Assembly: GCA_030167865.1 (NCBI GenBank)
Contig: JALAGF010000066.1
Coordinates: 62,001 to 85,366, forward strand
From: Craspedostauros australis
Taxonomy: Eukaryota
Direction: 5' to 3'
DNA length: 23,366 bases
Numbering within the stretch: position 1 is the stretch's first letter; the number at the start of each line of letters is the position of its first letter. Of this stretch, positions 1-23,366 are shown in pieces. The notes beneath the pieces were generated by a model. That model was not told where the DNA came from. It did not search any database and saw only the letters and a program-made list of their open reading frames with translations. A program made the translations under genes and the position numbers.

Positions 1-1
1 G

Positions 2-2401: not shown

Positions 2402-2635
2402 TGAGAGAAGTAGGAAGATTTACATGAAGTACAGCAATCGTCAGCACCAACGGATTGGCACTTCTACAAGCGCGATTTCACATAAATACATTGTTTCTAT
2501 TCTACGTACTGATCTGATGTGAGGGTGTTCTTGCATGCTTGAAGCAAAGTGTGGCTGTGGACGGTGTGTGCTCCTTGCGTGGTATGGTACACTTGTGTGT
2601 ATTTGCTCGCACACCTACAGATGGTTTCACCCCAA

Positions 2636-4591: not shown

Positions 4592-5388
4592 GGTGGATCC
4601 TCGCGAGCTTCTTGCGCGCTGTCGTTCCTGGAGGATGTGCCTCACTCTGTTGTGCTCTATTCTACAACGCCTTCTTTGTTATTCGTATTGGGGTGATAAG
4701 GATGCTTCACGAACCTTCGTTTCTTCGTTCTGCCTCTTGAGTGGCTGGACTTGCTGCTGCAACACGACGACCTCGACCGATCAAGGCATTCGTATTCTAT
4801 TATATGATCTATGGTACGAATAGTCGTAAGCAACGCGCTGCACACTCTGGGCGAGGAACAGGAACAGGGGATGGCAACAGGTCACCCAAAGGTCTCTTTG
4901 TGCCCCTCCCATGCAACTCTCTCGTTGTGCACAAAAGAACACAAACCAGGCAGCACCACAAAGTGGAGGCGTTGTCGAAGCTTCGTGTTGTGCTTTTCTC
5001 TTTCGCGACGAGAAAACCGTGTGTCGTTGTTCATGTTTCCTCTCCCACCGCGAAACCGCGCGATTTTCCGTCTTGGTGAGAGATGTTTTGTGTCGTTCGC
5101 GAATTTTTGTCGGTGACCATGACCGTTACAATCCAATCGCATGAGTCAACACGTGATTCAACCTGTTTAGTCTTGTTTGACTCAGATGATCTGTCGCGAG
5201 TCTTCATTTTTCTTGTTTGTGCGCCAAAAAGGAAACATCGCATCAACCACACGCATCAAATTCTCTCCCACCGCCACCATCCATCATCGTCCACCATCGT
5301 CCACCACGCACGGATCAGCATCGTCTGCTGGTGGAAGACTGAGGGAGGGCATAAAAACGCAATCCGAAAGCGGGCCGCAGTGGGTGAC

Positions 5389-7305
5389 ATGCAACGTTCA
5401 AGTAACTGTGCTCGTAATCGGACCACCGAATCACACCGACGAACGAAGAAGAACTGTCAGACGAGACACGAGGGATTGGTGCTGCTGGTTGGCACAGCGA
5501 TTCTGACATTCTTCCTTGCCGCAGCCTTTGCAACCACGAGATCAGCAACAGTTTCTGCATTCGGATTCGAGCAGTCGCATTGCGCAAGACTGTTTGCATC
5601 AAGGCAACTGCCTCTCGCCCGACCGAAGGCTCATTCCTCCTATCTGCACCATTTGCCATCGGCTTCATTTCACATTGAGGAGGCGTTTCATCACCGCAGC
5701 AGCCCGCGACAGTCGGCAGCCATACGATCGGCATTGCAGAATCACAGGCCCACCATCGCATCCAGCAAGGCACCACAATTGCCAACAGCAACAACAACGG
5801 CGTTGGCGATGAGTGCCGTCAGTACAGATGCAACAGATGCAGAGACCGGCGATGCTGCCAATGTGAAGCCTCAGGTTTCCGCAGCCACGGGATCGAATCC
5901 TCCAGCAGCGACCAATGCCGATGATGCCAACATCGACTCTGATATGGGAAGTGTGTGCGAGGTGGTGGAAGATGATGACATTGAAACATCGTCGCTGAAT
6001 GAGGCGGACATGTCGACGCTACCGCAAGGCGCCAAGAAAGGATTCTATGTCGTGAAGCAATACAAACTATCCCCCAAGCCATTCGACATGGATCAGATCC
6101 AGAAACTGCTCGGCGACACCAACGCGGAACGACTCAAGCTGACGCCCACCAATATCACCTTGCCGCTCGCGCTCATGCTGGTGGATTCGGCGGAGTACCA
6201 CTCCGTATCGCGCGCGCGCAAGGCCTGTCGCAAGGCCAACGTCCTCATCCATCGTGGACCGCTCTTGGTGGATGAAGCGACGGGCGAGAACACCGTCTTC
6301 GACACGGAACGGTGTATTCTGGGACGTGTCGGGGACCGCGTCCATCCCGGCGACGTGCTCGGCAAGCAAGTGCGGATGGGGTGCGGGAAGTTCCCGTTCA
6401 TGGGACAAGAGGCGCCGTTCGATCTGCCGGTGGTGTACGAAGATGATTACTTCGCCATCGTCAATAAGCCAGCGGGCGTCGTTTCCATCGCCAACAAGAA
6501 GGAGGGGCATGGCAAGATGACGGTAAGGGCGGCATTGCCGTTCGCTTTGACGCCGTCCCGCGTCGGGACCTTCGCGACCCTGCGCCGTCCTCAACCCGTG
6601 CATCGGCTGGATAAGCCCACCAGCGGGTTGCTCGTGATTGCCAAGACGAAACCAGCCATGGTCAGCCTGTGTCAGCAATTCCAACATCGTGTTGTCAAGA
6701 AGGAGTACACGGCAATTGTCAACGGCATACCGAAGGAGCTGGAGGAAACGTCCATCTCCTCGCAGCAAGCCATCGAGATGGGCGTGCACGTGGAGACGGA
6801 AGCACAACACGCCGACGTGCGATGGCAGGTGGCCGACACGGATCAGGATGGAAAGCACGCCGTCACGATCTGGAGGCCCACTCGCAGCGTCGCATGCGAT
6901 CGGGCGCATAACAAGACGCTGACGTTGGTCGAGCTCAAACCCAAGACGGGACGATACCACCAGCTGCGCCGCCACATGGCGTGGGATTGCGATGCGCCGA
7001 TTGTCGGAGATTACATTTATGACATCGGGATGCGAGCTCAACTCATGCGAGATGAAGGTCTGTGTCTGTGTTCGACCAGGGTGACGTTGGAGCATCCTTA
7101 CTTCAATTCGGAGAAGGGGCGACAAATCTACGAAGACATGGCACAAGAGGACCGGCATCCAGGAGGCGGCCTTTGGTTCTCGGAGCATGACGACAAGGTC
7201 ATGGTGACCGCGTTCATCGATTTACCTGACAAATTCAACGAGCTGATGTCGGAAACACGGAAGCGACCGCGATCGAGGAGCAATGGTAATAATTCATCCT
7301 GTTGA
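5389..7305 (+). CDS. RluA/RluD-family RNA pseudouridine synthase, probably plastid-targeted; start uncertain (in-frame ATGs also at 5083 and 5119)
   Basis: Contains VVYEDDYFAIVNKPAG, catalytic PVHRLDKPTSGLLVIAK (HRLD 6601-6612), KEYTAIV and TGRYHQLRRH...PIVGD. A hydrophobic stretch ending VSA-F is followed by an S/A/R-rich segment. Confidence 0.92.
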   Translation: MQRSSNCARNRTTESHRRTKKNCQTRHEGLVLLVGTAILTFFLAAAFATTRSATVSAFGFEQSHCARLFASRQLPLARPKAHSSYLHHLPSASFHIEEAFHHRSSPRQSAAIRSALQNHRPTIASSKAPQLPTATTTALAMSAVSTDATDAETGDAANVKPQVSAATGSNPPAATNADDANIDSDMGSVCEVVEDDDIETSSLNEADMSTLPQGAKKGFYVVKQYKLSPKPFDMDQIQKLLGDTNAERLKLTPTNITLPLALMLVDSAEYHSVSRARKACRKANVLIHRGPLLVDEATGENTVFDTERCILGRVGDRVHPGDVLGKQVRMGCGKFPFMGQEAPFDLPVVYEDDYFAIVNKPAGVVSIANKKEGHGKMTVRAALPFALTPSRVGTFATLRRPQPVHRLDKPTSGLLVIAKTKPAMVSLCQQFQHRVVKKEYTAIVNGIPKELEETSISSQQAIEMGVHVETEAQHADVRWQVADTDQDGKHAVTIWRPTRSVACDRAHNKTLTLVELKPKTGRYHQLRRHMAWDCDAPIVGDYIYDIGMRAQLMRDEGLCLCSTRVTLEHPYFNSEKGRQIYEDMAQEDRHPGGGLWFSEHDDKVMVTAFIDLPDKFNELMSETRKRPRSRSNGNNSSC

Positions 7306-7318
7306 GTCCATAGTACTC

Positions 7319-7348
7319 TCTCTCTATCTCTCTAGAGAGACAGAGAGA
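7319..7348. repeat. 30-bp (CT)n/(AG)n imperfect palindrome between convergent 3' ends
   Basis: TCTCTCTATCTCTCT|AGAGAGACAGAGAGA: 14 of 15 pairs complementary around the 7333/7334 axis. Confidence 0.8.
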
Positions 7349-7419
7349 CTCCACGTTGCTCCAGAGCGCTCGAGTTGTACCAGTATCCTGCGAAGTGCAT
7401 GGCAATGTCAATGTTAGTA

Positions 7420-8937
7420 CTAATACTTTGGAAAGCTCGGGTCGATGTCCTTCCTCCACCTTTCCAACCCACCCGTGATGTTTTGCACCACTCCAATCGA
7501 TGTTGCCTCGGCTTGCTTGGCTTCTAGGAGCATCTTCGTGGCGGCCGCTGAAAATATGCCTCTCCGACACACGCAGTAGACCGGCAAATCTCCATTCAAT
7601 GACAAGTTCGATAGTGACTCCAAGCCGGTCTGCAAATCAGAGAATGACATGTTCATTGCGCCCGGCAGGGAACAGATGTCAAACTGCTCCGGGGCTCTCA
7701 CGTCCAACAGAACATGAGGCTTGCCCGATTGTCGCACCTGGAAGTAATCGGCGCATGAGATCTCCATCTCCGGTGCGAGTGGGATGGCAACGTAGTCGCA
7801 CGAAATCCCGCGTGCAACCTGCGATACCTCGTGACTATCCTGCATGCTGCAGATGGTCGGTTCGATGCCGCACACTGCGCAGTTGGACTTCTTCGGTGGC
7901 TTCTTCAAGGAAAGGAACGAACATTGCGACGCATCGTACATCAGCAACCGATCGTGCATGGTCTTCCCCATCCCCGTGATGAGTTTGATTGTCTCGGTCG
8001 CTTGCAGTATGCCGATGGTGCCTGGAACCGGTCCCAGCACGCCATTGTCTGAGCAGGTCTTGGTTCCTTCGCTTTTGCTGGGTTTGGGGTAGAGACACCG
8101 GTAGCATGGACCTTCCTTGTGGTTGTAGATTGTGAGCTGACCTTCCATGCCGATGGCGCTGCCCGAAACTAACGGTACACCGGCCAACACACACGCATCG
8201 TTGACCAGGTAGCGTGTTTGCGGGTTGTCGCTGGCATCCACGACGCACGTATGATCCGACACAAGCTGCAGGGCATTGTGGTAGGTCAGTGGCGACTGCA
8301 CAGGTTCACACCGAATGGAGGGATTGAGTTCCTTGACAGCCCGGCATGCAGACTCCGCCTTGTTCATCCCCACATTTCTCGTGCCATGGATGACCTGTCT
8401 GTGCAGATTGGACACGTCCACATGATCAAAGTCTACGATCGATAAGCGACCAACCCCGCACGCTGCGAGGTAGAGGATGACGGTGGAGCCGATGCCACCA
8501 GCCCCAACGATGAGGACGGATGATTTTGCCAGCTTGAGCTGTCCCTCCACCCCAAAGCCATGAGTCATCAGCAGCTGTCTCGAGTATCGCTCAATCTGGT
8601 TGGGATCGAGCTGCGAGACGAAGTTGCCCGTTGATTTGTCGCCAGCACTTCCGATTGCTGACGCCGACACGTGTGCTGATGTTCGCGCCTGTTTTGCCTT
8701 TGATTCATCCAGTGGAGCGTCCTTCCCATCATGAAGCTTCCTCCTTCCATCTTCGTCTTCGTCTCCCATCGCTTCTGTGCCGTCGTCGGTCTCATCGGTC
8801 TCCCCAGCTGCCTTGTTCACTTTCGAGGACGCCAACTCGGATTGCAGCGCCTCATTCTTCTTCCGGAGCTTCTGGAGCTCACGTTCCAGCTCTTCGATTC
8901 TTGCCAACTGGTCCTCGCAGTTCTTGTCAATCGTCAT
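7420..8937 (-). CDS. MOCS3: Adenylyltransferase/sulfurtransferase MOCS3/UBA4 (ThiF/MoeB + rhodanese), 505 aa
   Basis: Contains RYSRQLL, GAGGIG, DFDHVDVSNLHRQVIH, DASDN, CYRC and CAVC Zn pairs, TCSDNGVLG, rhodanese LLDVR...CRRG and C-terminal DPSFPKY. First ATG at 8937 (the track start at 8952 is TTG). Confidence 0.96.
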   Translation of the reverse strand: MTIDKNCEDQLARIEELERELQKLRKKNEALQSELASSKVNKAAGETDETDDGTEAMGDEDEDGRRKLHDGKDAPLDESKAKQARTSAHVSASAIGSAGDKSTGNFVSQLDPNQIERYSRQLLMTHGFGVEGQLKLAKSSVLIVGAGGIGSTVILYLAACGVGRLSIVDFDHVDVSNLHRQVIHGTRNVGMNKAESACRAVKELNPSIRCEPVQSPLTYHNALQLVSDHTCVVDASDNPQTRYLVNDACVLAGVPLVSGSAIGMEGQLTIYNHKEGPCYRCLYPKPSKSEGTKTCSDNGVLGPVPGTIGILQATETIKLITGMGKTMHDRLLMYDASQCSFLSLKKPPKKSNCAVCGIEPTICSMQDSHEVSQVARGISCDYVAIPLAPEMEISCADYFQVRQSGKPHVLLDVRAPEQFDICSLPGAMNMSFSDLQTGLESLSNLSLNGDLPVYCVCRRGIFSAAATKMLLEAKQAEATSIGVVQNITGGLERWRKDIDPSFPKY

Positions 8938-9495
8938 GGTCGTTGAATACAATTCGCAATGAGCATTGTACTACTACTCCATGACGATGCATGAAGTGTG
9001 TGGTTGGCGTAGCTCGTGGCAGAGTCTCCCTTTCGTTGCTCCTCTGCCTTGTCGAGTTGGAAAGGCTTCGCTTTCCTTTCGTTTTGAGAATTGGGGCTGA
9101 CGGTAAATTGGATATTACAAATATTATCGGTTTGATGCAGTGCCGAACTGAGTACAAACTTTGGCGCCTGTACTTCCTCATTGTATCAAAACTGTGACGC
9201 CATTTGTAACGACGAGTGGCGAACAATACCCCCGCCTGACATGCGACCCAACAGACCAACCAGATCCAATCCCCGAACCGTGTTTTCTGCCATCTGTCAA
9301 GAAAGACACGCAGCTTGTGGTATCTTGTCAATCCCACTGTGACAACTATTCCATTCTGCGGAACGTGTTTTGTATTCTCTCGTGCTGTCCAATCCATCCG
9401 TCAGCTGTCAACTCCAGAGAATGTCAACAAGCAGGCATAGATAGGTACCAGTTGCACTGTGGAGTACTCGTTCAAGTAGTTCAATTAGGGCAGAG

Positions 9496-9525
9496 CACAA
9501 GTACTCGCCAATGCGAGTACTTGTG
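9496..9525. repeat. Perfect 13-bp inverted repeat with 4-nt loop in the MOCS3/PUF divergent intergenic region
   Basis: CACAAGTACTCGC-CAAT-GCGAGTACTTGTG read directly. Confidence 0.85.
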
Positions 9526-10396
9526 TTGGTGTGATGGAGGAGTATTACCGTGTTTGTACGGGTACGGCAGCTCGTGGAGCATGCTGAGAGGCGAGCGAAC
9601 AGCCAGGCAACCGAAGAGGTTTTCCGCCTATCCCTGTGTTGTGGAGGATTTGGGCGGGTTGGTGGTTGTGAGGGGTGTCCCTTGGCGCGGTCTTTGTCTC
9701 GGTGGCGGTGTGTGGTGGTCTGCTGCTGCTCCTGCTGTCGCTGCTGTCGGTGTGCATGTGTGTTCTGTTGACACCATCCCCTCTCTCTCTCTCTCTGGTT
9801 GTGCCTGCTGTCGGAGGAAGCAAAGAAAGCGATAAAAGGCAACAGGAGAACACGAGAGAAGACAGGAACGAGCCACGATCGCCACGAAGCCAACGAGGCG
9901 CAACGTGGGAGAGATTTCGCGTGTCTCTGGACCAGACACGAACAATCTGTTCTCTTTCGTGTGTGATCGGAGCCTCCTTGTGTCTTTCGCAGCCTGCCCA
10001 CGAGAAATCTGTCATTCTGCCTTTCGCTGGTTGGGGACAGAGGCCGATCCCTTCTCACGGAGACTGTTGCTGCTTCCTCGTCCTCTCGTGCAACCTCGTG
10101 CTCCGCTCCCACACGGAGGTCGCCTCTGTTGTGCCTCCTCTTGGTCCCGCTCGCTCACTGGATGTCACCTCTCTCTTGGGAGCTCTTGCAAGATACCAAG
10201 CCACCATACAACCAAAGCCACCAAAATCCGAACGAAGAAGAAACAAACACAAGGAAGAGAACGAAGACGCACAAATACGCGAGAGCCAACAACATCACCT
10301 CCTCTGGGCATCAGAGAAGGAATCAACGGCGGTGGCGGTCTGGATCTCTTGCCCCTCTTGGCAGGTATTCATTTGGTCGGTGGAGCATCGCATCGA

Positions 10397-10433
10397 ATCA
10401 CATCACATCACATCACATCACATCACATCACAT
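10397..10433. repeat. (ATCAC)7 pentanucleotide microsatellite upstream of the PUF gene
   Basis: Seven perfect ATCAC units plus AT. Confidence 0.95.
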
Positions 10434-10605
10434 AGGAGCACGCCTCAAGTGGTGCTTCGCTTCTTTTGTCGCAGAGAAGGCAACGGCGACGGTGGCAGCG
10501 AAGGAGTCAGCAAGAGGCAAGAGGACCAGTCGCCTGTACTGGTGACACACCGTACGAGTAGGAGAGTAGGAGAGTAGGAAAAGTCCAAAAAGACCAGATT
10601 GGAGG

Positions 10606-13600
10606 ATGAGCAGCACTTGGCAGCTGGAGTTCAATGGGTCTCGGACCACCGACCATTCGTCAGGAGTTGAGCGGAATGATCCCGCAGCGACCCAGCTCTT
10701 TGGGTTGGGTCCGTCCGGTGGCAAATACGTGAGTATCCGTGCCAAAGGCAGCAGGCGTAATCGTTTTGTGTCCTACTGTGTCCTATTGTGCTCGCGTGCT
10801 ATCGTACAAATGTCGCCACAACGCAGCTCGTTCCATTTGGTGCATCGACGGTGCCGTTCGTTGAAATCGTCCTCTCCAGCGGAGACCGTAACTCGGTGCG
10901 GTGCAGCAGCCAGCCGATGGCATGCTTCCGTTTCTTCGAGGGCAACGCAGCCGCCACATACCAATAGCCTGGTGCTCCAAGAAACCCTGTCTCACAAACT
11001 GATTCTCGCTCACTGTCTGCAATATGCACCCATCATCATCGCCATCACCATCATCGACGACGATGATGACGACTCATTGCGGACTCCTGACTTGGTATCG
11101 GCACTCGTGTCCCATGAGTAGTCACAGACAGGACACTCGGGTGAAGGATACACCCTGCATGAGACGGACGATCATCCTGGGATTGAGTCAATGTTCGGAG
11201 CCCTGGGAATAGACGACCAGGAGCCGTCGGGTTCCTTCTTCTCCCCCTTGCCGCCTCGCGACCAGCCAACGACGCAGCCATTGAAGGGACTTGAAAGGCA
11301 TTATGATGGCGTCAGTGCTTGGCAGCAACCTCAGCAGCAACAGGAGCAGCCACAGCAACAGCACCAACGCCCCATTGGCTCCAAACCATTCATCTTACCT
11401 ACAGCAACAGCACAAAGAGCGGAGGCGGGAGCTAGAACAGTGGCTGGAGTGGGATCGTATCAGCATGATCCCAACCCTGCATCGCTTGCGGACATCATTG
11501 GCCGCGAACACACCTCCAATCTGTTGGGCGGGGCGGGTCGTTCCGTTCCATCAGAGTGGAGTCCACAGTACGCAGCCAGCGACCATGATGCCAACACTCA
11601 CATCTCAGCATCACCGGTGCTGAACTCCATCTCTCGCCCCTACGTCATCCATTCAGCGACAGAGCATCCATCACCACCATCGGCAACAGCAACTGTCACA
11701 ACGCTTCACCAGCGACAGCACCAGCACCTGCCAACAACTGGCGGCGTGTCCCAGCCATTTGACATTGCCTTGAACAACGGTCTCCACCACGACGATCTCG
11801 GCGAAGGCTACTCACCCATGGTATGTTCTCCACATTCACCTGTCTTGTCGCTTGTTATGGTGCTCTATGGTAGTGTGCAGCACAGCTGGGACGTACCGTT
11901 GTTGTTTGAAATGTCAATCTGCCTCTGATTGATGCTCTGCCACATCATGAATACGGCATCAAGTGCGCCTATGAACACCGTGAACACCAGTATCCACAGG
12001 AATACATCATGACACATAGTCTAATACGGTTCTCTTCTTCTCCAATCTCTCTCCAATGTTCCTCCCAATTTCGACGATTGCATCTCCGATGGACAATCAC
12101 CCACGCTCAACTCTGATGTACATATGCATACCTCCGTGAATACTTCCATCAGTCTTCTATCGGTCTGCAGGACATGAACAAAGGCGCTGATCACCAATCG
12201 ATGCATCTTGGTGCTGGTAACTCGTACCTCGGTTCCTCAGGCTGGGAACACCACGGCAGGTCCATGGGAAGCGGAAATGTCAGCGATCATCACAATCACA
12301 ACCCGATCACCATCACGTCGACCTCCTCCACTTCCTACTCGCATCGTCAGCAAAGTCTCGAGCGCGACTACGGTGCACCCCATGAGGAAATCAAGACATC
12401 TATCTCACCGGTGATGCAGCCCGTCCAAGTGCAGATCATCCCAGCAAGCCAGACGGTGTACGTCGCAGCTGCACCACAATCACAATACCGCTACGCACAG
12501 GTGCAACATCACTACCAACCACCACAACCGCATGGCCATGGCCATGGTCAACACCATGAACCATTGCAAAACCATCACCATCACCACCACCTTAATCAGC
12601 AACACCAGCAGCAACACGTTCACCTTCACTCTCAATCGCTCGACTCGAACCAGCGTGGACGAACAGCAACAGGCCATCTCGATGGCTCCCGGGCGGAAGT
12701 GCACTCGCGGTACATGCCACCGTTTCAGCTCCATGAAAACTATCCTTCGGTGGGAGAGTACACACCTCCAGGCTACGTGAAGCACCAGTCATCCTTGGGC
12801 GTGTCCCCTGGGTCGATCGGCAGCGGTGCCGAGGGCTTGCCTCCGCACACCTTCATCGTTGCGGTGGAGTCGCCCAGAGATGGCTTCGATGGCCACCACC
12901 ATCAGCACCATCACCAATATCAAACCCAGCCGCACCATGGCTACGGGAATCAGCGTCACGTGACGATGCTACGAGATGGCAGGCACAGCGGCGGCCGTTC
13001 CACCAGAAAGGCGCTGTCGTCTTCACCTCGGCGGCAAGGAGTGGCCGATGGGAGATACCGTGGCGACTCGCTCTTGGACGAGTTCAAGGCAAACAAGAGC
13101 AGGGATTGGAGCGTCCTTGACATCCAGGGGCACGTCCCAGAGTTCTGCCAGGATCAGAACGGATCCCGATTCATCCAACAACGGCTTGAGATAGGTGACC
13201 CCACCGAAAAAGAGTACGTCTTGAAGGAGGTGCTGGGCGCCATCGAATCTCTCCGTAATGACCTCTTCGGCAACTACGTCGTCCAGAAGCTCTTCGACTT
13301 CGGCACTCCGCAGATGAGGTCGGACCTTTGCGCCACGTTAACCGGCGACATGGTCCACTTGTCCCTGAAGATGTACGGCTGCCGGGTCGTTCAGAAGGCG
13401 CTGGAGGTGGTCAACGACGACATGCTGCCTTCTCTCCTCGATGAGTTCAAGGGCCACGTCCTCGACTGCATCTACGACCAGAACGGCAACCACGTGATCC
13501 AAAAGTGTATCGAAATCGTTCACAAACGATCGAGGCACGCAATGTCAAAGGGAAAGCCTGAACATGCCAAGCGGGTCGACGGGCACCTCAACTTCGTCAT

Positions 13601-14532
13601 CGAGGACGTGCTCGGCAACGTGACGTCGCTATCATGCCACCCATACGGCTGCAGAGTGCTGCAACGCATCCTCGAGCACTGCGAAGGCAACCGAAAGAAG
13701 CGTGCTTTGATGGTCATCCGAGATGTTCACAGAACATTGCTCGATGATCAGTACGGCAACTACGTCATCCAGCACGTCCTGCACTACGGTACCGACGTGG
13801 ACAGAGACTCCGTCCTCTCCATCGTCGTTGAGAATGGCTTGCTGAAGCTTTCGCGGCAGAAATTTGCTAGCAACGTCGTCGAGAAGTTGCTCAAGCATGG
13901 TTCCCAACGACACCGCCGGGCCATCGTCCGCGAGATGCTGAAGAAGGCCAATACGTCGCCAGCATCGCACAAGGAGGGCAGGATTGGCCGAGGTTCTTCC
14001 TTCGACAGCCAGGACGGCAGAGATTCGACCGTCGTCCTCTTCATGGTACGGGACGCGTTCGCAAATTACGTCGTCCAAACAGCCCTCGATGTGCTTTGCG
14101 AATGCGAGGAGAAGAAGCAGCTCTTGCAAGAGCTCAATTCGCACTCCGCCGAACTGGTAAGTGAGGTCGCCCCTTTCCATGGATTGGTTCTGGAAGTGTA
14201 TGCGTGAAGTTGAATGCGCCGAAATGATCGTTGCTGGTGCCTGGTGTTGCTCTGTCGGAGGCGTGTTTGATTCTGTTCTCGTCTTTCGCCAGCAATTCTT
14301 GCCGAGCTGCCTCTTGCCGTCGCATTGCTTCTCTTTGCAGCTTTGCGTGAACCACATCCGCAATGCAATTCATCGTGTCCTTCTCACCATCAACATGTCT
14401 TCTTCCTATTCTTGACCTGTGACATGATATGATGATGATGGTTGTGATTCGAATGTGCTTTGCATTGAATTGCGAGTGCAGCGGAACTACACATTCGCTA
14501 AACACATCGTCAGCAAATTAAGCAACAATTGA
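10606..14532 (+). CDS. Pumilio/PUF RNA-binding protein (PUM1/2-type), ~950 aa; predicted exons 10606-10728, 11128-11820, 12171-14156, 14482-14532
   Basis: Eight PUF repeats (SRFIQ, NYVVQ, CRVVQ, NHVIQ, CRVLQ, NYVIQ, SNVVE, NYVVQ). Phase-0 introns: GTGAGT 10729..CAG 11127, GTATGT 11821..CAG 12170, GTAAGT 14157..CAG 14481. The last exon encodes RNYTFAKHIVSKL, matching the PUF C-cap (RKYTYGKHILAKL type). Exon 1 is the least certain; an alternative ATG lies at 11191. Confidence 0.9.
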
Positions 14533-15279: not shown

Positions 15280-16757
15280 CTACGATGACTTGGGTTTCTT
15301 TCGTCTGTTTCGTCTCTTCTTCGAGATCGATGTTGCTCCCGAAGGATCCGCCACGCCCTCGTACGTGATGGGCGTCATCTTGACCAAACCATTTGAGGTG
15401 CCGTTTGCAGTTCCGTTCGTGCTTCCGTTCGTGCTTCCGTTCGCACTTCCGTTCATGATGCCGTTGCTCTTGCCGTTGGAGTATGGAGCAGCAACCGCCT
15501 TTTCCTTCTTGCCAAAATCATCCAGCACCAGCGAGGCCTTTGTTCCGAACGGAGCCGTCAAGGCATCCCAGAGTGCGAAGTACGGGCTGAATCCCGGTCC
15601 GAGGAATGCTGGAAGCTGCAGAATGCCGACGATCTGCATGAACAGACTCACTACAACCATGGCGAATGTCTTGTCGTCCAGACCGAATGGCTTGTTGCCG
15701 AGGAATGCGTGGACGGTATCCCTGAGGATGTTGCCCATGAAGCCATCCCTGTCGTGGACGTACAGGTGGAACAATGTTCCCATGGTCAAACCTGCGCATT
15801 GAAGGGTGATCGGATGTTTTTCGTAGAATACGTGTGCCAACCGCCAACCGCCAATCGCCAATCGCGGAAAAATGAGTGGTCAAGCGGAGTATTATCCGGA
15901 TGAAGCAATTGTGTGAGATGGTGTTCTGTCATTCCAAAAATAAAAGCAAGTGACGGCAACGACGCCAATTGCGACAAGTGTGATAATGCCATTGATGACA
16001 GCCATCCAATATCTGCAGTCTCGGTATCATCGTCGGCATCATCATCGGCATCGCCGTCATCATTTGTGAGGGCAGTATGGATTGAATGAACCACAGGCAC
16101 GACCGATGTCGAATCACAACACAGCCGGGTGCTCACGAACACAGGAATAGAGCAACATAGTGTGATGCATATAGTATTGCATGGAAGGAAGGAAGGAAGG
16201 AAAGACTCACCATTTTGGAAAGGCCACGGTATTCCATTCTTCAAGTGGCCATCGAAGCCTTTCACGAGGAAGCTTCCCATGTTGCCGAGCATGCACCCGT
16301 ACAGAACGGGTCCGATGATCGGGGTCGGATAGTACGGCGACGCCTTGCCATCGAGCTCGGCGAATGCCACCATGATGAACTTCATGAGACCCAGGGCTCG
16401 GAAGAGCTGCGCCAGAGAGGTGTAGGCGATGGTGACCGGCAGAAAGCCCGCCACCTTGCGACCCACATCAAAGGGTGTGAAGTTGGCCAGGGCGTATGCG
16501 ATGAAGAGCGCTGGCCAGGCGATGTCAGCGCCCGTGATCATGGAGGTTGGCTTGCCCAGCCAAATGAATCCCATCCATCCACCGCCGAAGCCAACCACTG
16601 TGGACAAGGCGAAGGCATGGAAGTCGGACATCGTCCGATCCTTGTTGCGTCCATTGCGCACGGCCAGAGCACCCTGGTATGCCATTCCAAAGGCTTGCAG
16701 CTCTGTCGTCATGTAGAAGTTCCCCGTGAGGAACGAGACCAACCAAGGCGGCACCAT
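15280..16757 (-). CDS. TRIC/TMEM38-like trimeric intracellular cation channel, 352 aa; exons 16757-16211 and 15791-15280
   Basis: Multiple hydrophobic helices and TRIC-type VVGFGGGWMGFIWLGKP motif. A phase-1 intron 16210-15792 (GTGAGT...GCGCAG, 419 bp) joins WPFQN-G-LTMGTLFHLY in frame. C-terminus KPKSS fits KxKxx. Confidence 0.75.
15389..15477 (-). repeat. 12-bp coding minisatellite encoding eight Asn-Gly units at 4-aa spacing
   Basis: Translation NGKSNGIMNGSANGSTNGSTNGTANGTSNG; + strand shows TTCCGTTCGTGC-like units. Confidence 0.85.
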
Positions 16758-17288
16758 CTTTGACGTTCGAACTTGTTCCGGTTTCTGACGAGTTTGTTCC
16801 TGCTCGGGCGGGGTTGAACTCTTGTGAGCACAAGTTTGTGTGCGCGTAATTGCAGACCAAGGCGTCTGTTGTTTGTTTTCGCGTTGTTGATGTGTTGTGT
16901 ACTGTCGCGATGTGGAGTGAAGGGTATTCGTACCATACGTACGAGTCTTTCCTTGATGTCTTTTGATGCCCAGCGCCACGTTGCCTGAGGGGAGTTGTGC
17001 CGTCCTCTGTGCATTTGTGATACACAAGAATGAGAGCATTGGCAGTTGCGCGCACTTTCATCAAAATTCCGCGAACGGGAGAAGGTACGTGGTGAGTTCA
17101 TCGCAAACGCAAGAAATTCTGTTCGTTGCCAACCCAATCGTGGAACAACGGATTGGCGGACAGACTTCTTCATCCACGAACAACAACGCGTCACGCAGAC
17201 AATGTGGTTTCCGTCTGTCGTGTGCTGCGTCATGTCGCGCCAAGACTGTGTCTGCGACTTTCCACGAAATCTGTTGGCGGAAACATAC

Positions 17289-17446
17289 GACCCGGGTCAG
17301 TGAGTCGACCAACCATTGGTAAAGTAGAGTGGCACTTTTTCTTCGATTAAAACCAAACTAAGCATACCGATCAACTCATTATAGTGTCCATAGCAACAGG
17401 AAAATTACCCAGAAACTTAAAGTCCATAGTTTAAGTTTTATGGACC
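17289..17446 (+). repeat. Left terminal inverted repeat (158 bp)
   Basis: GACCCGGGTCAGTGAGTCGACC...TTTAAGTTTTATGGACC; manual alignment to the reverse complement of 21697-21854 gives 5 substitutions and no indels. Confidence 0.97.
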
Positions 17447-17903
17447 AGCAAATATTTTGAATCGTTTGGGTCAAACGTAGCATTCCACAATGTAGTTTTG
17501 TCGAAGGTTCTTTGGTGTTCCGAGTTAATAACGATTGATGTCCATTCACGTTGGTGTCTCCAGCTTTTTCCTTTCTCCTCGTTCGTTTGGAACACGTTAT
17601 ACACCGTTAGCTGCTCCGGAATCGATTGACATTTTCCACTTGTGACATCACACACATCATCACATGCGCACGCACACATTGTTGCCACGCCCACACAAAA
17701 ACCGTCACATTTTGGGCTTCACTCCAAAGGTGCCTCCGCCGATGAGATGCTCATTGTATCTGTTGTTCTGCGGTTGTAGTTTGAGTAGTGAGAGCACTAG
17801 TTACATTGGCGGTTGTTGTTCTCGCTGCTGCATCCAACACCTCTATCGGCATCACCTCTTCCACTCGCTTTCATTCAGTGTTCTCCAGTGCCATTCATCG
17901 AAC

Positions 17904-17921
17904 AATCAATCAATCAATCAA
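17904..17921. repeat. Short (AATC)n tract just upstream of the transposase ATG
   Basis: AATCAATCAATCAATCAA read directly. Confidence 0.7.
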
Positions 17922-17944
17922 CCTACTCTGCTACCATCAACACC

Positions 17945-20900
17945 ATGTCCTCCACCGCCGCGAAAGCCTCCATCAAGGGTGAAAACCCATCTCCTCGTAA
18001 GAAGCCTCGTTCCTGTGTTGCCCCCCTCGATTCTCCTTTTGATTCAGATGGCAACTTGGCACCTACTCGTGAGCAGCTGTTGCCCGACAAGTTGTCTGCT
18101 GGATTGCAGAAGCCCACCGACATCACTCACGCGATCGAGGTGAAGCCGATGCTTCCGGTGGACAGCAACCTTGTTCCAACTTTGGCGCATGTCGATGCCG
18201 CCAACTTGCGCGTCGACGTGCGCCTGTCCAGTGCGGCTGGTGTCATTTTTGATACACCAACGGTCACACTGCGTACGGTTGGACAAGGTGTCGATGCGAT
18301 CACAGTGGTTGACGTCAACATCAACGTGCCGCATCCCGTCGCGTCTCCTGCCAAACCAACTACCCGTGCAAGCACTGCACGACACGCAAACGCTGTCGCT
18401 GGAGCCGCTTCCACCCGTGTTGATGTTGACAGCGACGACGACTACGTGGATGGCCGCGATCGCAGGAGGAAGCGAACAGGACGTAACAGACTCATGCAGA
18501 AAACGGCGAGAGGATGGCGTCGCGATGCGTTGGTCCGTGTCGCAGGTTTGGTTAAGTCTGGCCTTTCTCCAAAACTGTTCGACTGTATGCCGAAGACGGG
18601 ATTCGCAATTGGAGGAAAACACAACAAGCAAGTCTGGTGCAACATCAAACGACTCTGGGCACCAATTGCTTGTGCACTCTGGGGTGTGTTGCTCCCAAAA
18701 GAAGCGACACCAACTGGCCAGATGCATGAGGTGGTGCAATTTGTCCGAGCTAGGCAACCACTGCCACCACTGAGGCTTGCACCAAATCTGTACCGCATTT
18801 GTGTTGGAGGGAGCAAGCTTATGCACCTTTGCGCGAGAGCCGTTCTCGCGCAGTCTGCATCTCCACCAACATGCACAGATATTCTCACTGGATACGTCAA
18901 TGGATTGCCGGAGGAACAACGCGTGCGTGTACATACTAATCGATTAAGTGTCACTAAAAGCCAACATAACACATTGCATCGTTACCACGACATGTTGAGC
19001 GATGGGGAAACCATTCCCCCCAAAGTTCTCCAATACCGTGTGACTGCATGTGCTTTGTCTGGCGTGGTGTCCTTTCTCTGCACTACGACCACGTACAAGG
19101 CTGGCTTGTGCCACGCAGTGGAGTGGGAAGGAGTTGTATTCGAGAATGTTCCCGTCTTCGATCGTGGAGGAAAAAGTGTGATGGCGCTATTCGACATGTA
19201 CAAGACTACCACTACCAACCCAGTGGGCAAGCCAGCATTTAAGGAGATGACTAAGCTACTAACACGACGAGGCAAAGTGAACACAGGGCTGTCTTCCTTC
19301 GAGAGCCACTTCTTGCTGGCGATGCTCACTCTCAAACGCACGATCTCGCGCCTCGTCACACTTTTGAAGGCTAAGTATCCCGCAACAAATGATGCCGAGG
19401 ACGAGAATGACGTGATTTCCCAACATCTGCGCACAGCCGAGTCTCTGTTGTACTCATTGGAACTTCTTGTTGTCTTCGTCAAATGGGAATTCACTGCCTC
19501 TCACATGCAGATGGAGTGTGACGACCCACTGCACTCAGCTCAATTCGCGCTCACGCCCAACGAGAAGAAGAAGACAACGACCAAACGATCCCAACCAACC
19601 AGAACACGTACAAACAAGCACAAGCTCAGGAAGAAGAGCACTCGAACAAGCGACATTGCTTCTGCCACCAATGACACCCCAAGCATCACAACTGATATTC
19701 GTGACATCACTTGTGTGACAGATGCCGCTGCCAATGACACCACCACTGACAACAATGAACAGCCTCATGCCCCCACGGACAAACATCACACTGGAGTATG
19801 CAACCGTTGTGCAGCAGCAATGCGATTTGTGGACGACCGATATGTCCCTTTCGTCACGATGCTTATGGAGGATCACCTTGCAGAACACGTGACAGAATTA
19901 GAGTCCATGCTTAATGCTGCACCGGGGTTCAACAACGAAATACTGTGGTACATGGCACACAAAGTGCGCAGTAAGGTCCAATTCGGACAAATTGAGCAGT
20001 ACCTCAAAAACATCAACAACAGAGAGGATCGTGCACACGTGGTGCTGGACCACAAACAGAAAATTCTTCCAACCGGCCAAGGCGAGGCTCAACAAGAATA
20101 CTGGGGCAAGAAGGGCATGTCTCTGTTGGGTGCGATGGTGATAACGTGTCGCAATGACACATTCACTTATCGCTTCATCGATATCATCGTCAAAGGAAGA
20201 CCAACACAAGACACCCTACAAGTTGGCGGGCTTATCGAAATTGTGCAACAACAGGTGAGAAAAATTCTTCCATCGGTCACCGAAATTGTCATCCAATCCG
20301 ATAATGCGTCTTGTTTCGCGAGCCACGAGCACATCCCACTGATCACCTCAGTGCTCAACAAGAACCTTGGAACGCGAAATGTCCCGAAGATTTCTGCCTG
20401 GATCTACACCGAAGCCCAAACCGGAAAAGGCCGCCTCGACACGCACTTTGCGTACATCACTGTTGTACTGCGAGCGTACGTGCTGGAGGACAATGACATC
20501 AAAACAGAACACCAACTTTTCGACGCATTGGAAGCTGGCAACATTGCGGGAACGACCACGGTTTTGGTGGATGCAGAATGCCTCGAGGGGCGTGTCCTGA
20601 GTTTCCCTGACATGCCGAAGAAGCGTTTCTGCGCGAAAGGGCAAAAGGTACGCCAAACGCACGAGATCAAGTTTGGAGACAACGAGGCGAATTTGGTGGC
20701 GGCGTCCGGTGTCACAGACGACGTTCTTGTCCCGTGTACCGAATGGGAAGACTGGGAAATTAACCAGCTGGGCGTCCGCACCATTGCGGCGCACACGTCA
20801 GAAAAGGAACCGTTCACCGCGGAATCGCCGAAGAAGAAGAAGAAGACACGAAAGCGCGGATCTACCGCAGTGGAGAGCAAAGCGCTCGTCTTTCGCGACG

Positions 20901-21577
20901 CACTGATCATGGGGCAAGGAGAGCTACCGCACGACCACACCGCAGAATTGAAAGACCAGACCGCGGAAGCAGAAATCCCTCGACTCGCGGTGAAGGGCTG
21001 GGCAGTGAAAACAACGCGCAGCAACGCGGAGTTACCACGGTACGTACTCCAGAAACTGGATGAAATGAGCACGGCAGCCAAAGAGGACCCGAAAAATCGG
21101 CCAACAGAACACGAAGCGCACCGCCGATTGATGGAGGTGGAGGGAACAGAAACTGACTGGTACATCCAGTTGCACGCCAGTCCAATGCGTGTGAAATCGT
21201 ACTTGGCCGCAGCGTACAACAACGCACAGCGCGCAGCAAAGAAAACAACCGCGGCACCAAGCACGACCGACAACAACGCAAAAATGGCATCAATTTCGTC
21301 ACCGTTACCACCCTCACCATCACCACCTACAACAGCAACAGCAACCGCCGCGTCTGTAGCGGAACCATCAGGTACGAAGCAAGCAGAGCAGCAGCATACC
21401 GAAGAAGAGGAAGAGATGGAGGAAGAGGACAGAGAGAACAGAATGTGGTGTGAGGCCAACACCATCAGGAGGCACGCGGAGAACGAAGAGATGGTCCCCG
21501 AAGAAGTGAGGGATGCGATTCGCGCGAGGATGAGACGGAGACTGATGGCGAAAATGGAAAAACAAAATAAGGACTAA
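17945..21577 (+). CDS. DDD transposase, Sola3-like, 1210 aa
   Basis: First ATG at 17945 (the track start at 17813 is TTG). Motifs: WYMAHKVRSKVQ; VVLD(702)HKQKILP...EAQQEYWGKKGMS; QSD(786)NASCF; TEAQTGKGRLD(832)THF; C-terminal GWAVK. These parallel recalled Sola3 motifs (DWAMKxxP..RExQ..WxGKxG, SDNAxxY, GKxxCD, GWALK). The ORF lies inside TIRs. Confidence 0.85.
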   Translation: MSSTAAKASIKGENPSPRKKPRSCVAPLDSPFDSDGNLAPTREQLLPDKLSAGLQKPTDITHAIEVKPMLPVDSNLVPTLAHVDAANLRVDVRLSSAAGVIFDTPTVTLRTVGQGVDAITVVDVNINVPHPVASPAKPTTRASTARHANAVAGAASTRVDVDSDDDYVDGRDRRRKRTGRNRLMQKTARGWRRDALVRVAGLVKSGLSPKLFDCMPKTGFAIGGKHNKQVWCNIKRLWAPIACALWGVLLPKEATPTGQMHEVVQFVRARQPLPPLRLAPNLYRICVGGSKLMHLCARAVLAQSASPPTCTDILTGYVNGLPEEQRVRVHTNRLSVTKSQHNTLHRYHDMLSDGETIPPKVLQYRVTACALSGVVSFLCTTTTYKAGLCHAVEWEGVVFENVPVFDRGGKSVMALFDMYKTTTTNPVGKPAFKEMTKLLTRRGKVNTGLSSFESHFLLAMLTLKRTISRLVTLLKAKYPATNDAEDENDVISQHLRTAESLLYSLELLVVFVKWEFTASHMQMECDDPLHSAQFALTPNEKKKTTTKRSQPTRTRTNKHKLRKKSTRTSDIASATNDTPSITTDIRDITCVTDAAANDTTTDNNEQPHAPTDKHHTGVCNRCAAAMRFVDDRYVPFVTMLMEDHLAEHVTELESMLNAAPGFNNEILWYMAHKVRSKVQFGQIEQYLKNINNREDRAHVVLDHKQKILPTGQGEAQQEYWGKKGMSLLGAMVITCRNDTFTYRFIDIIVKGRPTQDTLQVGGLIEIVQQQVRKILPSVTEIVIQSDNASCFASHEHIPLITSVLNKNLGTRNVPKISAWIYTEAQTGKGRLDTHFAYITVVLRAYVLEDNDIKTEHQLFDALEAGNIAGTTTVLVDAECLEGRVLSFPDMPKKRFCAKGQKVRQTHEIKFGDNEANLVAASGVTDDVLVPCTEWEDWEINQLGVRTIAAHTSEKEPFTAESPKKKKKTRKRGSTAVESKALVFRDALIMGQGELPHDHTAELKDQTAEAEIPRLAVKGWAVKTTRSNAELPRYVLQKLDEMSTAAKEDPKNRPTEHEAHRRLMEVEGTETDWYIQLHASPMRVKSYLAAAYNNAQRAAKKTTAAPSTTDNNAKMASISSPLPPSPSPPTTATATAASVAEPSGTKQAEQQHTEEEEEMEEEDRENRMWCEANTIRRHAENEEMVPEEVRDAIRARMRRRLMAKMEKQNKD

Positions 21578-21696
21578 TTAATTCAAAATGTGAACAAATT
21601 CGCCAAAACGAAGAACACAAACACGTTATTTTGGATCGAACTTGTCGGATGTCTATCGCCCAGTTTAGGAGTAGTCCAAAAATGTGCACATTGACG

Positions 21697-21854
21697 GGTC
21701 CATAAAACTTAAACTATGGACTTTAAGTTTCTGGGTAATTTTCCTGTTGCTATAGACACTATAATGAGTTGATTAGTATGCTTAGTTTGGTTGTAATCGA
21801 AGAAAAAGTGCCACTCTACTTTACCAATGGTAGGTCGACTCACTGACCCGGGTC
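21697..21854 (-). repeat. Right terminal inverted repeat (158 bp)
   Basis: GGTCCATAAAACTTAAA...CACTGACCCGGGTC; reverse complement of the left TIR with 5 mismatches. Confidence 0.97.
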
Positions 21855-22073
21855 ATACACATCGGCAGGATTGCAACCATCACAATGATGATGATGGACC
21901 GTGGCGCATGCATTTTCTGCTCTGCTCCGCGAATACTCACACCGCACTGATTGATTGTATGGTAACCATGCACCACTATTATGTATTATCATATGCATCG
22001 GGCATTCTACGTACTCTTCATGGATGGGAGACGTCGGACAACGTCATCGCCGGATGCGATGTGAGCATCAGCA

Positions 22074-23366
22074 TCAAGCCAAATTCGCCATCATCCACTC
22101 CTCCTCGATCTCGTCAATCTCGTCAATCTCCTCGTTGAACTCCGCCTCCAGCTCATCCTCGGCCAAATCGCTGTCCCACGCCGACTGTCCTCTCAAACGG
22201 CGCGAGGGGCATTTGCTTGGACGGAAACGAAGCTCGGCGATGCATCCGGAACCGGTGTATGACACGCTGGTCTTGTAGATGTTCGAGTGATTGAGCCACA
22301 GGTCGGTGAGGCCGTTGTGGCCGCCCTTGTCCGCATACCTGGTGAGGGACTGGTCGGGGCTGCTGTGGCGCGGGTGGTAGAACTGCATCTTTGGGCGGCT
22401 CTCATCGGCGTCGACGTCCAGGAATCGACTCATCTCTATCTTCACGGCTCCGTGCATGGACGATCTGAAGAAGAAATAGATGCATCCTCCTGGCTTGCCA
22501 ATGTCGTCAGGGCACGTCTTCTTGTCCTCCTGGATGACGAGGACCTTGCCGATGGGGGTAGCGGGGCAGTTGGCGAACTTGTTCACGCCTCCGTTGCGTT
22601 TCAATGGCGCACCATCGCGACCGACACCAGGACCTGGATTTGGGCAGCCGTCGTTGGGGCTTCCGAGATCTGGGTCGCCGTCGTCGCCGCTTCTCCTTGG
22701 GTCACACATGGGGTTGTTGTACAATGCATACTTTGAGTCTGATGTTCTGTACCCAGTCGGTTTGGAGGTGTCGAAGACACGGGCGGCTCCGTAGCGCTGG
22801 TCGCTTCTCCAGTTGCGGCACTGCAATGGGTAATTGGGATTGAAGCTGCAGTAGCAACCAAGCTCACCAGTTTTGCAATTGGATGGGGGTCTGGGTGTGT
22901 ACGCCCTGGAAGACGAGCTGGCGGCGATGATCTTCACACCCTTCGTGTTCCACCATTCGTCGTAGATGAAGCCACCATCTGGAAGGTCGTTGAAGTCGAG
23001 GGTGATCAGCGGGCACACGCCGGGTGGGAGCGTGCAGTCTGGCTTGCATCGAGTGCCGGAGTAGTCATTGCGAGTTCCTTCGTCGCATTCCTCGCCGGGA
23101 TCGACGATGCCATTACCGCATGTGTTTGGAACGGGGATTTCGCAATTGTTGGTGCAGTTGTCGTTGTTGTTGTTGTTGCCATCGTCACACTCTTCTCCGT
23201 TCTGGACGATACCATCACCGCATTTGGGAAGCTTGCAGCCGTTGGTGCAGCCATCAGTGTTGCTGTTGTTACCATCATCACACTCTTCGCCGGCCTGCAT
23301 GAAACCGTCACCACACTTGGCGTTCTTGCAGTTGTTGGTGCAGGAATCAGTGTTGCTGTTGTTGCC
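22074..23366 (-). CDS. Cys-rich repeat protein (Myxococcus Cys-rich/DUF4215-like repeats + C-terminal globular domain + acidic tail), probably extracellular; 5'-partial
   Basis: Frame is open to the window edge (GNNSNTDSCTNNCKNAK...). Three complete CG[D/N]G...GEECD[D/E]G...C...C repeats plus part of a fourth, then RVFDTSKPTG...DPDLGSPN...GKVLVIQE...PDD..GG and RRLRG before an acidic tail. Confidence 0.85.
   Translation of the reverse strand, partial: GNNSNTDSCTNNCKNAKCGDGFMQAGEECDDGNNSNTDGCTNGCKLPKCGDGIVQNGEECDDGNNNNNDNCTNNCEIPVPNTCGNGIVDPGEECDEGTRNDYSGTRCKPDCTLPPGVCPLITLDFNDLPDGGFIYDEWWNTKGVKIIAASSSSRAYTPRPPSNCKTGELGCYCSFNPNYPLQCRNWRSDQRYGAARVFDTSKPTGYRTSDSKYALYNNPMCDPRRSGDDGDPDLGSPNDGCPNPGPGVGRDGAPLKRNGGVNKFANCPATPIGKVLVIQEDKKTCPDDIGKPGGCIYFFFRSSMHGAVKIEMSRFLDVDADESRPKMQFYHPRHSSPDQSLTRYADKGGHNGLTDLWLNHSNIYKTSVSYTGSGCIAELRFRPSKCPSRRLRGQSAWDSDLAEDELEAEFNEEIDEIDEIEEEWMMANLA

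Follow-up and report, generated by a model that had tools for sequence, protein, structure and literature searches.

Positions 62,001 to 85,366 of contig JALAGF010000066.1 (Craspedostauros australis, assembly GCA_030167865.1, forward strand) make up a 23,366-nucleotide (nt) stretch of DNA, which we refer to as the window. Within the window lies a 4,566-bp element in which a single long transposase, P0001, is encoded between two terminal inverted repeats (TIRs), with a 4-bp target-site duplication (TSD) on the outside. An earlier sequence-only reading had described positions 17285 to 21858 as an intact, young-looking transposon resembling Sola3. The interval was correct, but it includes both copies of the TSD, and the element proper runs from 17289 to 21854. 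What the region holds is one insertion of a genuine cut-and-paste DNA transposon, complete in structure and bounded by TIRs. Its features, in window coordinates and with amino acids (aa) numbered along P0001, are as follows.

17285 to 17288, no strand: left TSD, ATAC, by direct reading; identical to the right copy.
17289 to 21854, plus strand: whole element, 4,566 bp, bounded by the outermost positions at which the two repeats match.
17289 to 17446, plus strand: left TIR, 158 bp, by base-by-base comparison of the ends.
17413 to 17445, plus strand: subterminal interleaved short palindromes in the TIR (AAACTTAAA / TTTAAGTTT; GTCCATA / TATGGAC), from the repeat search and a hairpin in the DNA fold.
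17945 to 21577, plus strand: intronless transposase open reading frame (ORF), P0001, 1,210 aa plus stop, from the ORF list and translation; sole frame, first ATG, stop-free.
19547 to 19789, plus strand: private low-complexity insertion, about aa 535 to 615, rich in K, T, N, and D, from the alignment; predicted local distance difference test score (pLDDT) below 50 in the model.
19865 to 20851, plus strand: predicted catalytic domain, aa 641 to 969, with a long helix, an RNase H-like core, and a C-terminal beta-rich subdomain, from the AlphaFold model.
20048 to 20050, plus strand: codon of D702 (DHKQK), predicted first catalytic Asp, on strand beta-1, from the alignment and model strand E56-63.
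20300 to 20302, plus strand: codon of D786 (SDNAS), predicted second Asp of the triad, closing beta-4 as the last residue of model strand E140-146.
20438 to 20440, plus strand: codon of D832 (GKGRLDTHF), predicted third Asp of the triad, near the beginning of the helix that follows beta-5 (model helix H190-207).
21697 to 21854, minus strand: right TIR, 158 bp, by base-by-base comparison of the ends.
21855 to 21858, no strand: right TSD, ATAC, by direct reading.

The base-by-base comparison bore out the 158-bp TIRs with five mismatches announced by the sequence-only reading. The mismatches fall at TIR positions 23, 62, 80, 81, and 101, the outermost 22 bp of the two ends are identical, and past position 158 identity collapses. 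In a repeat search, the arms were delimited at 17286 to 17453 and 21690 to 21857 (168 nt, 95% complementary), and they are the sole inverted pair of at least 30 nt in the window. The three extra bases in these arms arise because ATAC is partly palindromic. The left end begins at G17289 (GACCCGGGTCAGTGAG...), and the right end is its reverse complement and closes at C21854; the element termini are thereby GAC...GTC. The perfect 4-bp flanking ATAC, likewise reported earlier, is present at 17285 to 17288 and again at 21855 to 21858. The ends are symmetric only with a 4-bp duplication; with 3 or 5 bp, one end becomes 1 base longer. When the terminal 16-mer was searched with up to three mismatches allowed, it gave two matches in the window, both of them element ends (0.28 expected), and no second copy or solo end was seen in these 23 kb. 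The terminal 22-mer had zero exact matches in the prokaryote and viral contig collections (genome_contigs and viral_contigs). The predicted empty-site junction is GGAAAC-ATAC-ACATCGGC.

Both termini have internal symmetry. The first 10 bp of each end (GACCCGGGTC; 17289 to 17298 and 21845 to 21854) form a perfect palindrome that contains CCCGGG, and each terminus is therefore the same on both strands. The interleaved palindromes lie at the inner TIR edge, are mirrored at 21698 to 21730, and pair into a hairpin when the DNA is folded as a single strand; for the complete TIR, the folding energy is unremarkable (z −1.45). These subterminal palindromes may be transposase binding sites. We also considered a chance inverted repeat around a host gene and rejected it, since the ends are perfect, a duplication flanks them, and the encoded protein has the fold of a transposase.

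The stop-free 1,210-aa frame of the sequence-only reading was confirmed at 17945 to 21577 on the plus strand. Its homology to relatives extends from about aa 340 to about aa 1090 with no frame break in the alignment, and its GC content at third codon positions (0.57) is at or below that of seven neighboring ORFs (0.59 to 0.76). P0001 keeps 37 of the 40 columns that are at least 85% conserved in the family (92.5%; family median, 97%). The three Asp residues singled out earlier are present and nearly invariant: across 193 proteins (P0001 to P0193), the position of D702 is D in 145 of 148 aligned sequences, that of D786 is D in 150 of 153, and that of D832 is D in 146 of 149 and never E. E714, Q755, and E823 are nearly as constant as the catalytic Asp residues in the same 193 proteins. 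The motifs DHKQK, YFGKKGMS, QSDNAS, and TEAQTGKGRLDTHF are common to P0001 and to the unnamed family formed by P0002 to P0193, whereas an insertion of about 80 aa is private to P0001.

The catalytic core was modeled twice with AlphaFold. A model of aa 330 to 1010 (681 aa; 26-row alignment) had a pLDDT of 76.7 and a predicted template modeling score of 0.67, and a model of the core, aa 641 to 969 (mc3b61de49db5; 118-row alignment), had values of 93.9 and 0.90. Both models give the order beta1-beta2-beta3-alpha-beta4-alpha-beta5-alpha of RNase H, and in the predicted structures, D702, D786, and D832 occupy the canonical positions of the DDE/D triad of an RNase H-like fold. The Asp residues are spaced by 84 and 46 residues, and there is therefore no large insertion domain. 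We searched the core model against 48,161 PDB representatives, and all 20 chains with a Z score of at least 8 were DDE/D transposases or integrases. The mariner transposase Mos1 was highest (PDB 4mdb and 3hos; Z 10.9, with a root mean square deviation of 3.4 and 173 of 201 residues aligned, and Z 10.4), followed by the transposase domain of human Metnase (3k9j; 10.3) and the integrases of simian (SIV; 10.2) and human (HIV; 9.9) immunodeficiency viruses. Sleeping Beauty (9.3), IstA (8.4), and Ty3 integrase (8.1) came next, and Hermes (6.9), the P element (6.0), and Tn5 (5.4) were lower. Comparison of the core with an RNase H-like fold had been named beforehand as a check on the Sola-like reading; the core aligns with this fold, at Z scores up to the 10.9 of Mos1 and with the Asp residues in canonical positions.

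With Foldseek, the core model gave 14 matches at E ≤ 0.001, mostly to the two-domain Rous sarcoma virus (RSV) integrase (E 2.9e-4 to 7e-4). The 681-aa model gave nothing at E ≤ 0.001 and the viral structure library gave nothing; in this longer model, the helical region before the core resembled generic helical bundles only. As modeled, the catalytic fold of P0001 is that of mariner transposases and retroviral integrases. As in Mos1 and Metnase, the RNase H-like core of P0001 is compact and is not interrupted by any large insertion domain. The integrase cores of RSV, HIV, SIV, mouse mammary tumor virus, prototype foamy virus, and Ty3 align over 136 to 156 residues of the P0001 core (Z 8.1 to 10.2), and a small beta-rich domain follows the core in P0001 and integrases alike.

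To what family this transposase belongs was addressed by sequence searches. A first word-based search with core aa 600 to 960 as the query found 25 proteins among 2,388 candidates (E 1e-62 to 1e-7); they are 28 to 41% identical, and nearly all of them are on contigs of 3 to 7 kb. Across the word-based searches, the named relatives were two rotifer entries only, and two further searches of this type reached rotifer proteins only. The Rotaria and Adineta relatives are annotated as "unnamed protein product" or "C2H2-type domain-containing protein." A family profile run against 1.84 billion cluster representatives matched 5,070 at E ≤ 0.001, 2,592 at E ≤ 1e-10, and 638 at E ≤ 1e-30. A FastTree phylogeny built from 122 core sequences places P0001 alone on a branch next to a 48-member clade (support, 0.70).

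Despite this size, annotation of the family is sparse. P0001 had no significant Pfam match, and a FAM101 match (E 0.087; 13 bits against a cutoff of 27) was rejected because it falls in the low-complexity tail. Zero Pfam matches at E ≤ 0.001 were obtained with 42 long family members, and 26 family members gave no meaningful Pfam or NCBIfam match at E ≤ 1; weak matches to the Pfam model rve occurred in 2 of these 26, with a best E value of 0.09. No PDB sequence was matched in a profile search at E ≤ 10, none of the 10 family clusters looked up was informatively named, and there were no family relatives in prokaryote or viral contigs. Judged by these sequence comparisons, the P0001 family is very large, yet it is unannotated and unnamed.

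Relatives are also encoded at 24 metagenome loci, all on contigs of 1 to 6 kb. An inverted-repeat scan of six of them (L007, L012, L013, L014, L017, and L019) found such repeats in L019 only. In L019 (positions 1 to 6315; 6.3 kb), the inverted ends are 119 nt long, 98% identical, and located exactly at both contig ends, and L019 probably represents an entire element that was assembled by itself. Its coding sequence, divided among several exons, specifies a distant relative from the rotifer branch (25% identical; CDWGQKILP... and KRTDNAG...). A C2H2-like motif was seen downstream of the encoded relative.

Next, we considered the superfamily. Sola, with its groups Sola1, Sola2, and Sola3, was reportedly described by Bao, Jurka, Kapitonov, and Jurka in 2009 and is said to be defined by a DDD (three-Asp) transposase together with a 4-bp TSD. 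Among superfamilies that have no Pfam model, we know of no other in which a DDD triad and a 4-bp duplication are combined. The DDD triad and the 4-bp duplication of that definition are both found in this element, together with TIRs. By elimination and by this definition, we lean toward placing the element in the Sola superfamily in its broad sense, if by a small degree. Its placement in Sola3 specifically is offered tentatively, as a possibility that we do not rank as the expected outcome. The Sola-like reading thus stood as far as a TIR transposon with a 4-bp duplication, an intact frame, and a DDD fold are concerned, features that fit the definition ascribed to Sola.

The literature is consistent with such a placement. 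A passage of PMC5751038 states that Sola proteins have no Pfam model, which agrees with the zero significant Pfam matches for P0001, its 25 relatives, and 42 further members. Sola is among the repeat classes listed for the diatom Cyclotella cryptica in a portion of PMC7466962, and an excerpt of PMC11139960 reports Sola3 to be abundant near effector genes in Phytophthora sojae, an oomycete and also a stramenopile. Bivalve Sola1 elements are the longest, with a mean of 5,445 bp, according to a section of PMC10294476; compared with these, the large protein (1,210 aa) and the 4.6-kb length of our element mean that Sola1 would also suit. The criterion used by Repbase for a superfamily, as a passage in PMC4455052 gives it, is PSI-BLAST convergence at an e-value of <0.005. 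In the literature that we searched, we found no detailed description of a diatom Sola element, only the class listing for C. cryptica. The idea of an undescribed lineage, put forward by the sequence-only reading, is doubtful: the family is very large in public data, and the excerpts of PMC7466962 and PMC11139960 place Sola in C. cryptica and Sola3 in oomycetes.

Because the assignment proceeds by elimination, the other superfamilies carry weight. Zator duplicates 3 bp of its target, Academ duplicates 3 to 4 bp and has large extra domains, Novosib and KDZ duplicate about 8 bp, and Dada duplicates 6 to 7 bp; the target of Kolobok is TTAA. A 3-bp duplication (ATA or TAC), as made by Zator, would need ends of unequal length here, a single copy having been read. 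The signature given for Kolobok in a passage of PMC9587614 is C/DxxH. Tc1/mariner/pogo was rejected: the flank is ATAC and not TA, there was no DDE_1, DDE_3, or Transposase_1 match (26 members at E ≤ 1, 42 at E ≤ 0.001, and 12 at E ≤ 10), and what is shared with this superfamily is the fold only. piggyBac was rejected on the ATAC flank, which is not TTAA, and for want of a DDE_Tnp_1_7 (PF13843) match (26 members at E ≤ 1 and 42 at E ≤ 0.001); piggyBac was not among the 50 matches listed in either wide structure search, which is an absence and not an exclusion.

The likenesses in fold come with clear differences. Identity to mariner is 10 to 14%, mariner duplicates TA, and P0001 is about 3.5 times as long and has other flanking domains. 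Mariner is itself a DDD enzyme with a second Asp spacing of 34, whereas this spacing is 46 in P0001 (84/46). In contrast to integrases, P0001 has Asp and not Glu as the third catalytic residue and no significant rve match. In contrast to retroviral and long terminal repeat (LTR) elements, this element has TIRs and not LTRs, and it has no reverse transcriptase.

These differences bear on whether the element could be a highly diverged Zator, Tc1/mariner/pogo, Ginger, or Academ transposon, which we consider quite improbable. Such a membership would account for the best structural matches (Mos1, Metnase, Sleeping Beauty, and the retroviral and Ty3 integrases), for the SDNAS motif at the second Asp, which resembles the D-N motif of mariner and integrase cores, and for the weak rve matches in 2 of 26 members (best E, 0.09); moreover, Ginger elements make 4-bp duplications. 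However, Z scores of 9 to 11 at 10 to 14% identity speak for a common fold and not for family membership, and none of the 68 members scanned had a significant Tc1/mariner, pogo, or rve Pfam match. The ATAC flank is not TA; the duplications of Zator and Academ are 3 bp and 3 to 4 bp, respectively, and P0001 shows none of the large extra domains of Academ proteins. According to a passage of PMC5751038, the integrase encoded by Ginger is of the rve-type DDE class, whereas here the third position holds D in 146 of 149 sequences and E in none, and the best rve E value is 0.09, in 2 of 26 members; an rve-type Ginger core was rejected on these grounds.

It is unlikely, although less so, that the element is of the same kind but from a DDD lineage outside all named superfamilies, Sola1 to Sola3 included, that is abundant in marine protist data and in bdelloid rotifers. 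This would explain why 68 scanned family members had no Pfam, NCBIfam, or PDB sequence match, why 10 of 10 clusters looked up were uninformative, and why the only named relatives are Rotaria and Adineta entries. In addition, neither the GAC...GTC ends, with their palindromic 10-mer, nor the ATAC target agrees with the features that the sequence-only reading ascribed to Sola3, and the top structural neighbor is mariner Mos1 and not a family linked to Sola in the literature that we consulted. Against this, a DDD triad with a 4-bp TSD is the definition ascribed to Sola, and a family of more than 5,000 clusters is unlikely to have wholly escaped Repbase curation. True Sola proteins are also expected to be unannotated, having no Pfam model (a passage of PMC5751038), and in the excerpts of PMC7466962 and PMC11139960, automated annotation already gives Sola in a diatom and Sola3 in oomycetes. 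A stronger version of the same idea is that the element is the first anatomically complete example (ends, duplication, transposase, and fold) of a DDD group named by no curated resource, which would rank as a fourth group at the level of Sola1 to Sola3 or as a superfamily in its own right; we find this rather doubtful. Such a group would comprise more than 5,000 protein clusters, chiefly from marine eukaryote data and bdelloid rotifers, and would be marked by a compact mariner/integrase-like core, helical and His/Cys domains of its own, palindromic GACCCGGGTC termini, and a 4-bp target other than TTAA.

A number of observations weigh against taking the region for a complete and working Sola-type transposon. 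The Sola assignment was reached by elimination and by setting features of the element beside the definition ascribed to the superfamily. If the Sola3 features named in the sequence-only reading (GAG...CTC termini, TTAA targets, and TIRs of several hundred bp) are right, the element (GAC...GTC, ATAC, and 158-bp TIRs) differs in all three. A 4-bp flank match taken alone has a chance background of 1/256, and one copy only was seen. The terminal branch of P0001 is long (0.98, compared with a family median of 0.48), and its nearest relative is 48% identical over the 266-column core. We also count here a signal from DUF7869, which may be a remote sister family of transposases. Among language-model (Atlas) neighbors of aa 640 to 900, DUF7869 appeared in 24 of 30 named clusters, in 12 to 38% of their members (arthropods and chordates). 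There was no HMMER match to DUF7869 in 38 family members at E 1 or 10, with 42 more scanned at E ≤ 0.001 only, and no paper mentioning DUF7869 was found.

The remaining observations of this kind concern the parts of the protein outside the core. An N-terminal Cys/His module is present in 17 of 25 close relatives, 13 with the strict pattern and 4 as variants judged by eye, and in P0002 to P0024, it reads C-x2-H-x3-KKG-x-C-x2-C-x2-C-x2-C...C...H. By its residue pattern, this module looks like a zinc-binding DNA-binding domain, and there is no Pfam model for it. P0001 does not have the module and begins instead with an unrelated, poorly conserved part of about 330 aa; tblastn with the N termini of the relatives found no trace of the module in any frame of the element. 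The relatives also share an internal His/Cys motif, H-C-C...C-x-H-x-H...C-x-x-C, within about 25 aa. In P0001, this conserved motif is split by the insertion of about 80 aa, which is modeled as disordered, so that it is spread over about 95 aa, and one of its conserved Cys residues is Ser.

Whatever its classification, the element could be an immobile relic, an old single insertion whose transposase has lost DNA-binding parts. We regard this as possible, without expecting it to be the case. The missing N-terminal module, which is encoded in no frame, the split internal motif with its Cys-to-Ser exchange, the long branch, the five mismatches between the TIRs, and the lack of a second copy or solo end within the 23-kb window would all fit a relic. 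However, a 3.6-kb frame free of stops and frameshifts is unexpected in an old unselected relic, and in P0001, the catalytic Asp triad and 37 of the 40 positions conserved in the family are intact. The two ATAC copies match perfectly, as do the outermost 22 bp of the TIRs. Furthermore, 8 of the 25 relatives are also without the N-terminal module, some of which may be partial. The suggestion that the copy is young and possibly active is plausible, given the open frame, the triad, and the perfect duplication, but the single copy, the missing module, the split His/Cys motif, and the long branch speak against it, and so does the third-position GC content of the ORF, which does not exceed that of the neighboring ORFs.

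For the Sola-type element that we favor, the following mechanism is proposed by analogy with mariner transposases and retroviral integrases. The element would be an autonomous class II cut-and-paste element in which a single DDD transposase performs both excision and joining. Along the protein, the predicted order is upstream conserved domains, a long helical bundle with the His/Cys motif, the RNase H-like core, the beta-rich subdomain, and a conserved C-terminal tail. The transposase would bind the 158-bp inverted ends, presumably through its upstream domains, as we infer from mariner and the integrases. D702, D786, and D832 would hold two divalent metal ions, and DNA would be hydrolyzed at the GAC... 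and ...GTC termini. The freed 3'-OH ends would then be linked to target DNA whose two strands are cut 4 bp apart, and repair of this stagger would produce the ATAC duplication.

The insertion sits between two minus-strand ORFs, one at 15786 to 17039 with no Pfam match and one at 22074 to 23300 that encodes a DUF4215 Cys-rich repeat protein. In the DUF4215 region (22074 to 23366, minus strand), we observed three 93-bp tandem units at 23133 to 23366. Upstream (230 to 14207) are long ORFs without interruptions, whose products are a GH31 glycosidase, an RNA pseudouridine synthase, a ThiF-rhodanese protein (MOCS3-like), and a Pumilio-repeat protein. The region is eukaryotic, gene dense, and intron poor, as in a compact genome, and the description of the host as diatom-like is plausible.

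Taken together, these results indicate that the element is of an ordinary mobile-element kind and is most likely Sola-type. Elements of this kind, with a DDD transposase, TIRs, and a 4-bp duplication, have been known since 2009. Given this, and with Sola-class repeats listed for diatoms and oomycetes in the excerpts discussed above, the find is useful for annotation and unsurprising. A confident structural model is now at hand for a transposase family lacking both a Pfam model and a solved structure, and the core in that model is nearest to the mariner and retroviral integrase cores. To our knowledge, few natural cut-and-paste elements have been characterized in algae of this sort. Should this copy be active, a stramenopile-like alga would have provided a compact transposon with one intronless gene for one protein, and the element would be a candidate tool for insertional mutagenesis or transgenesis in such organisms.

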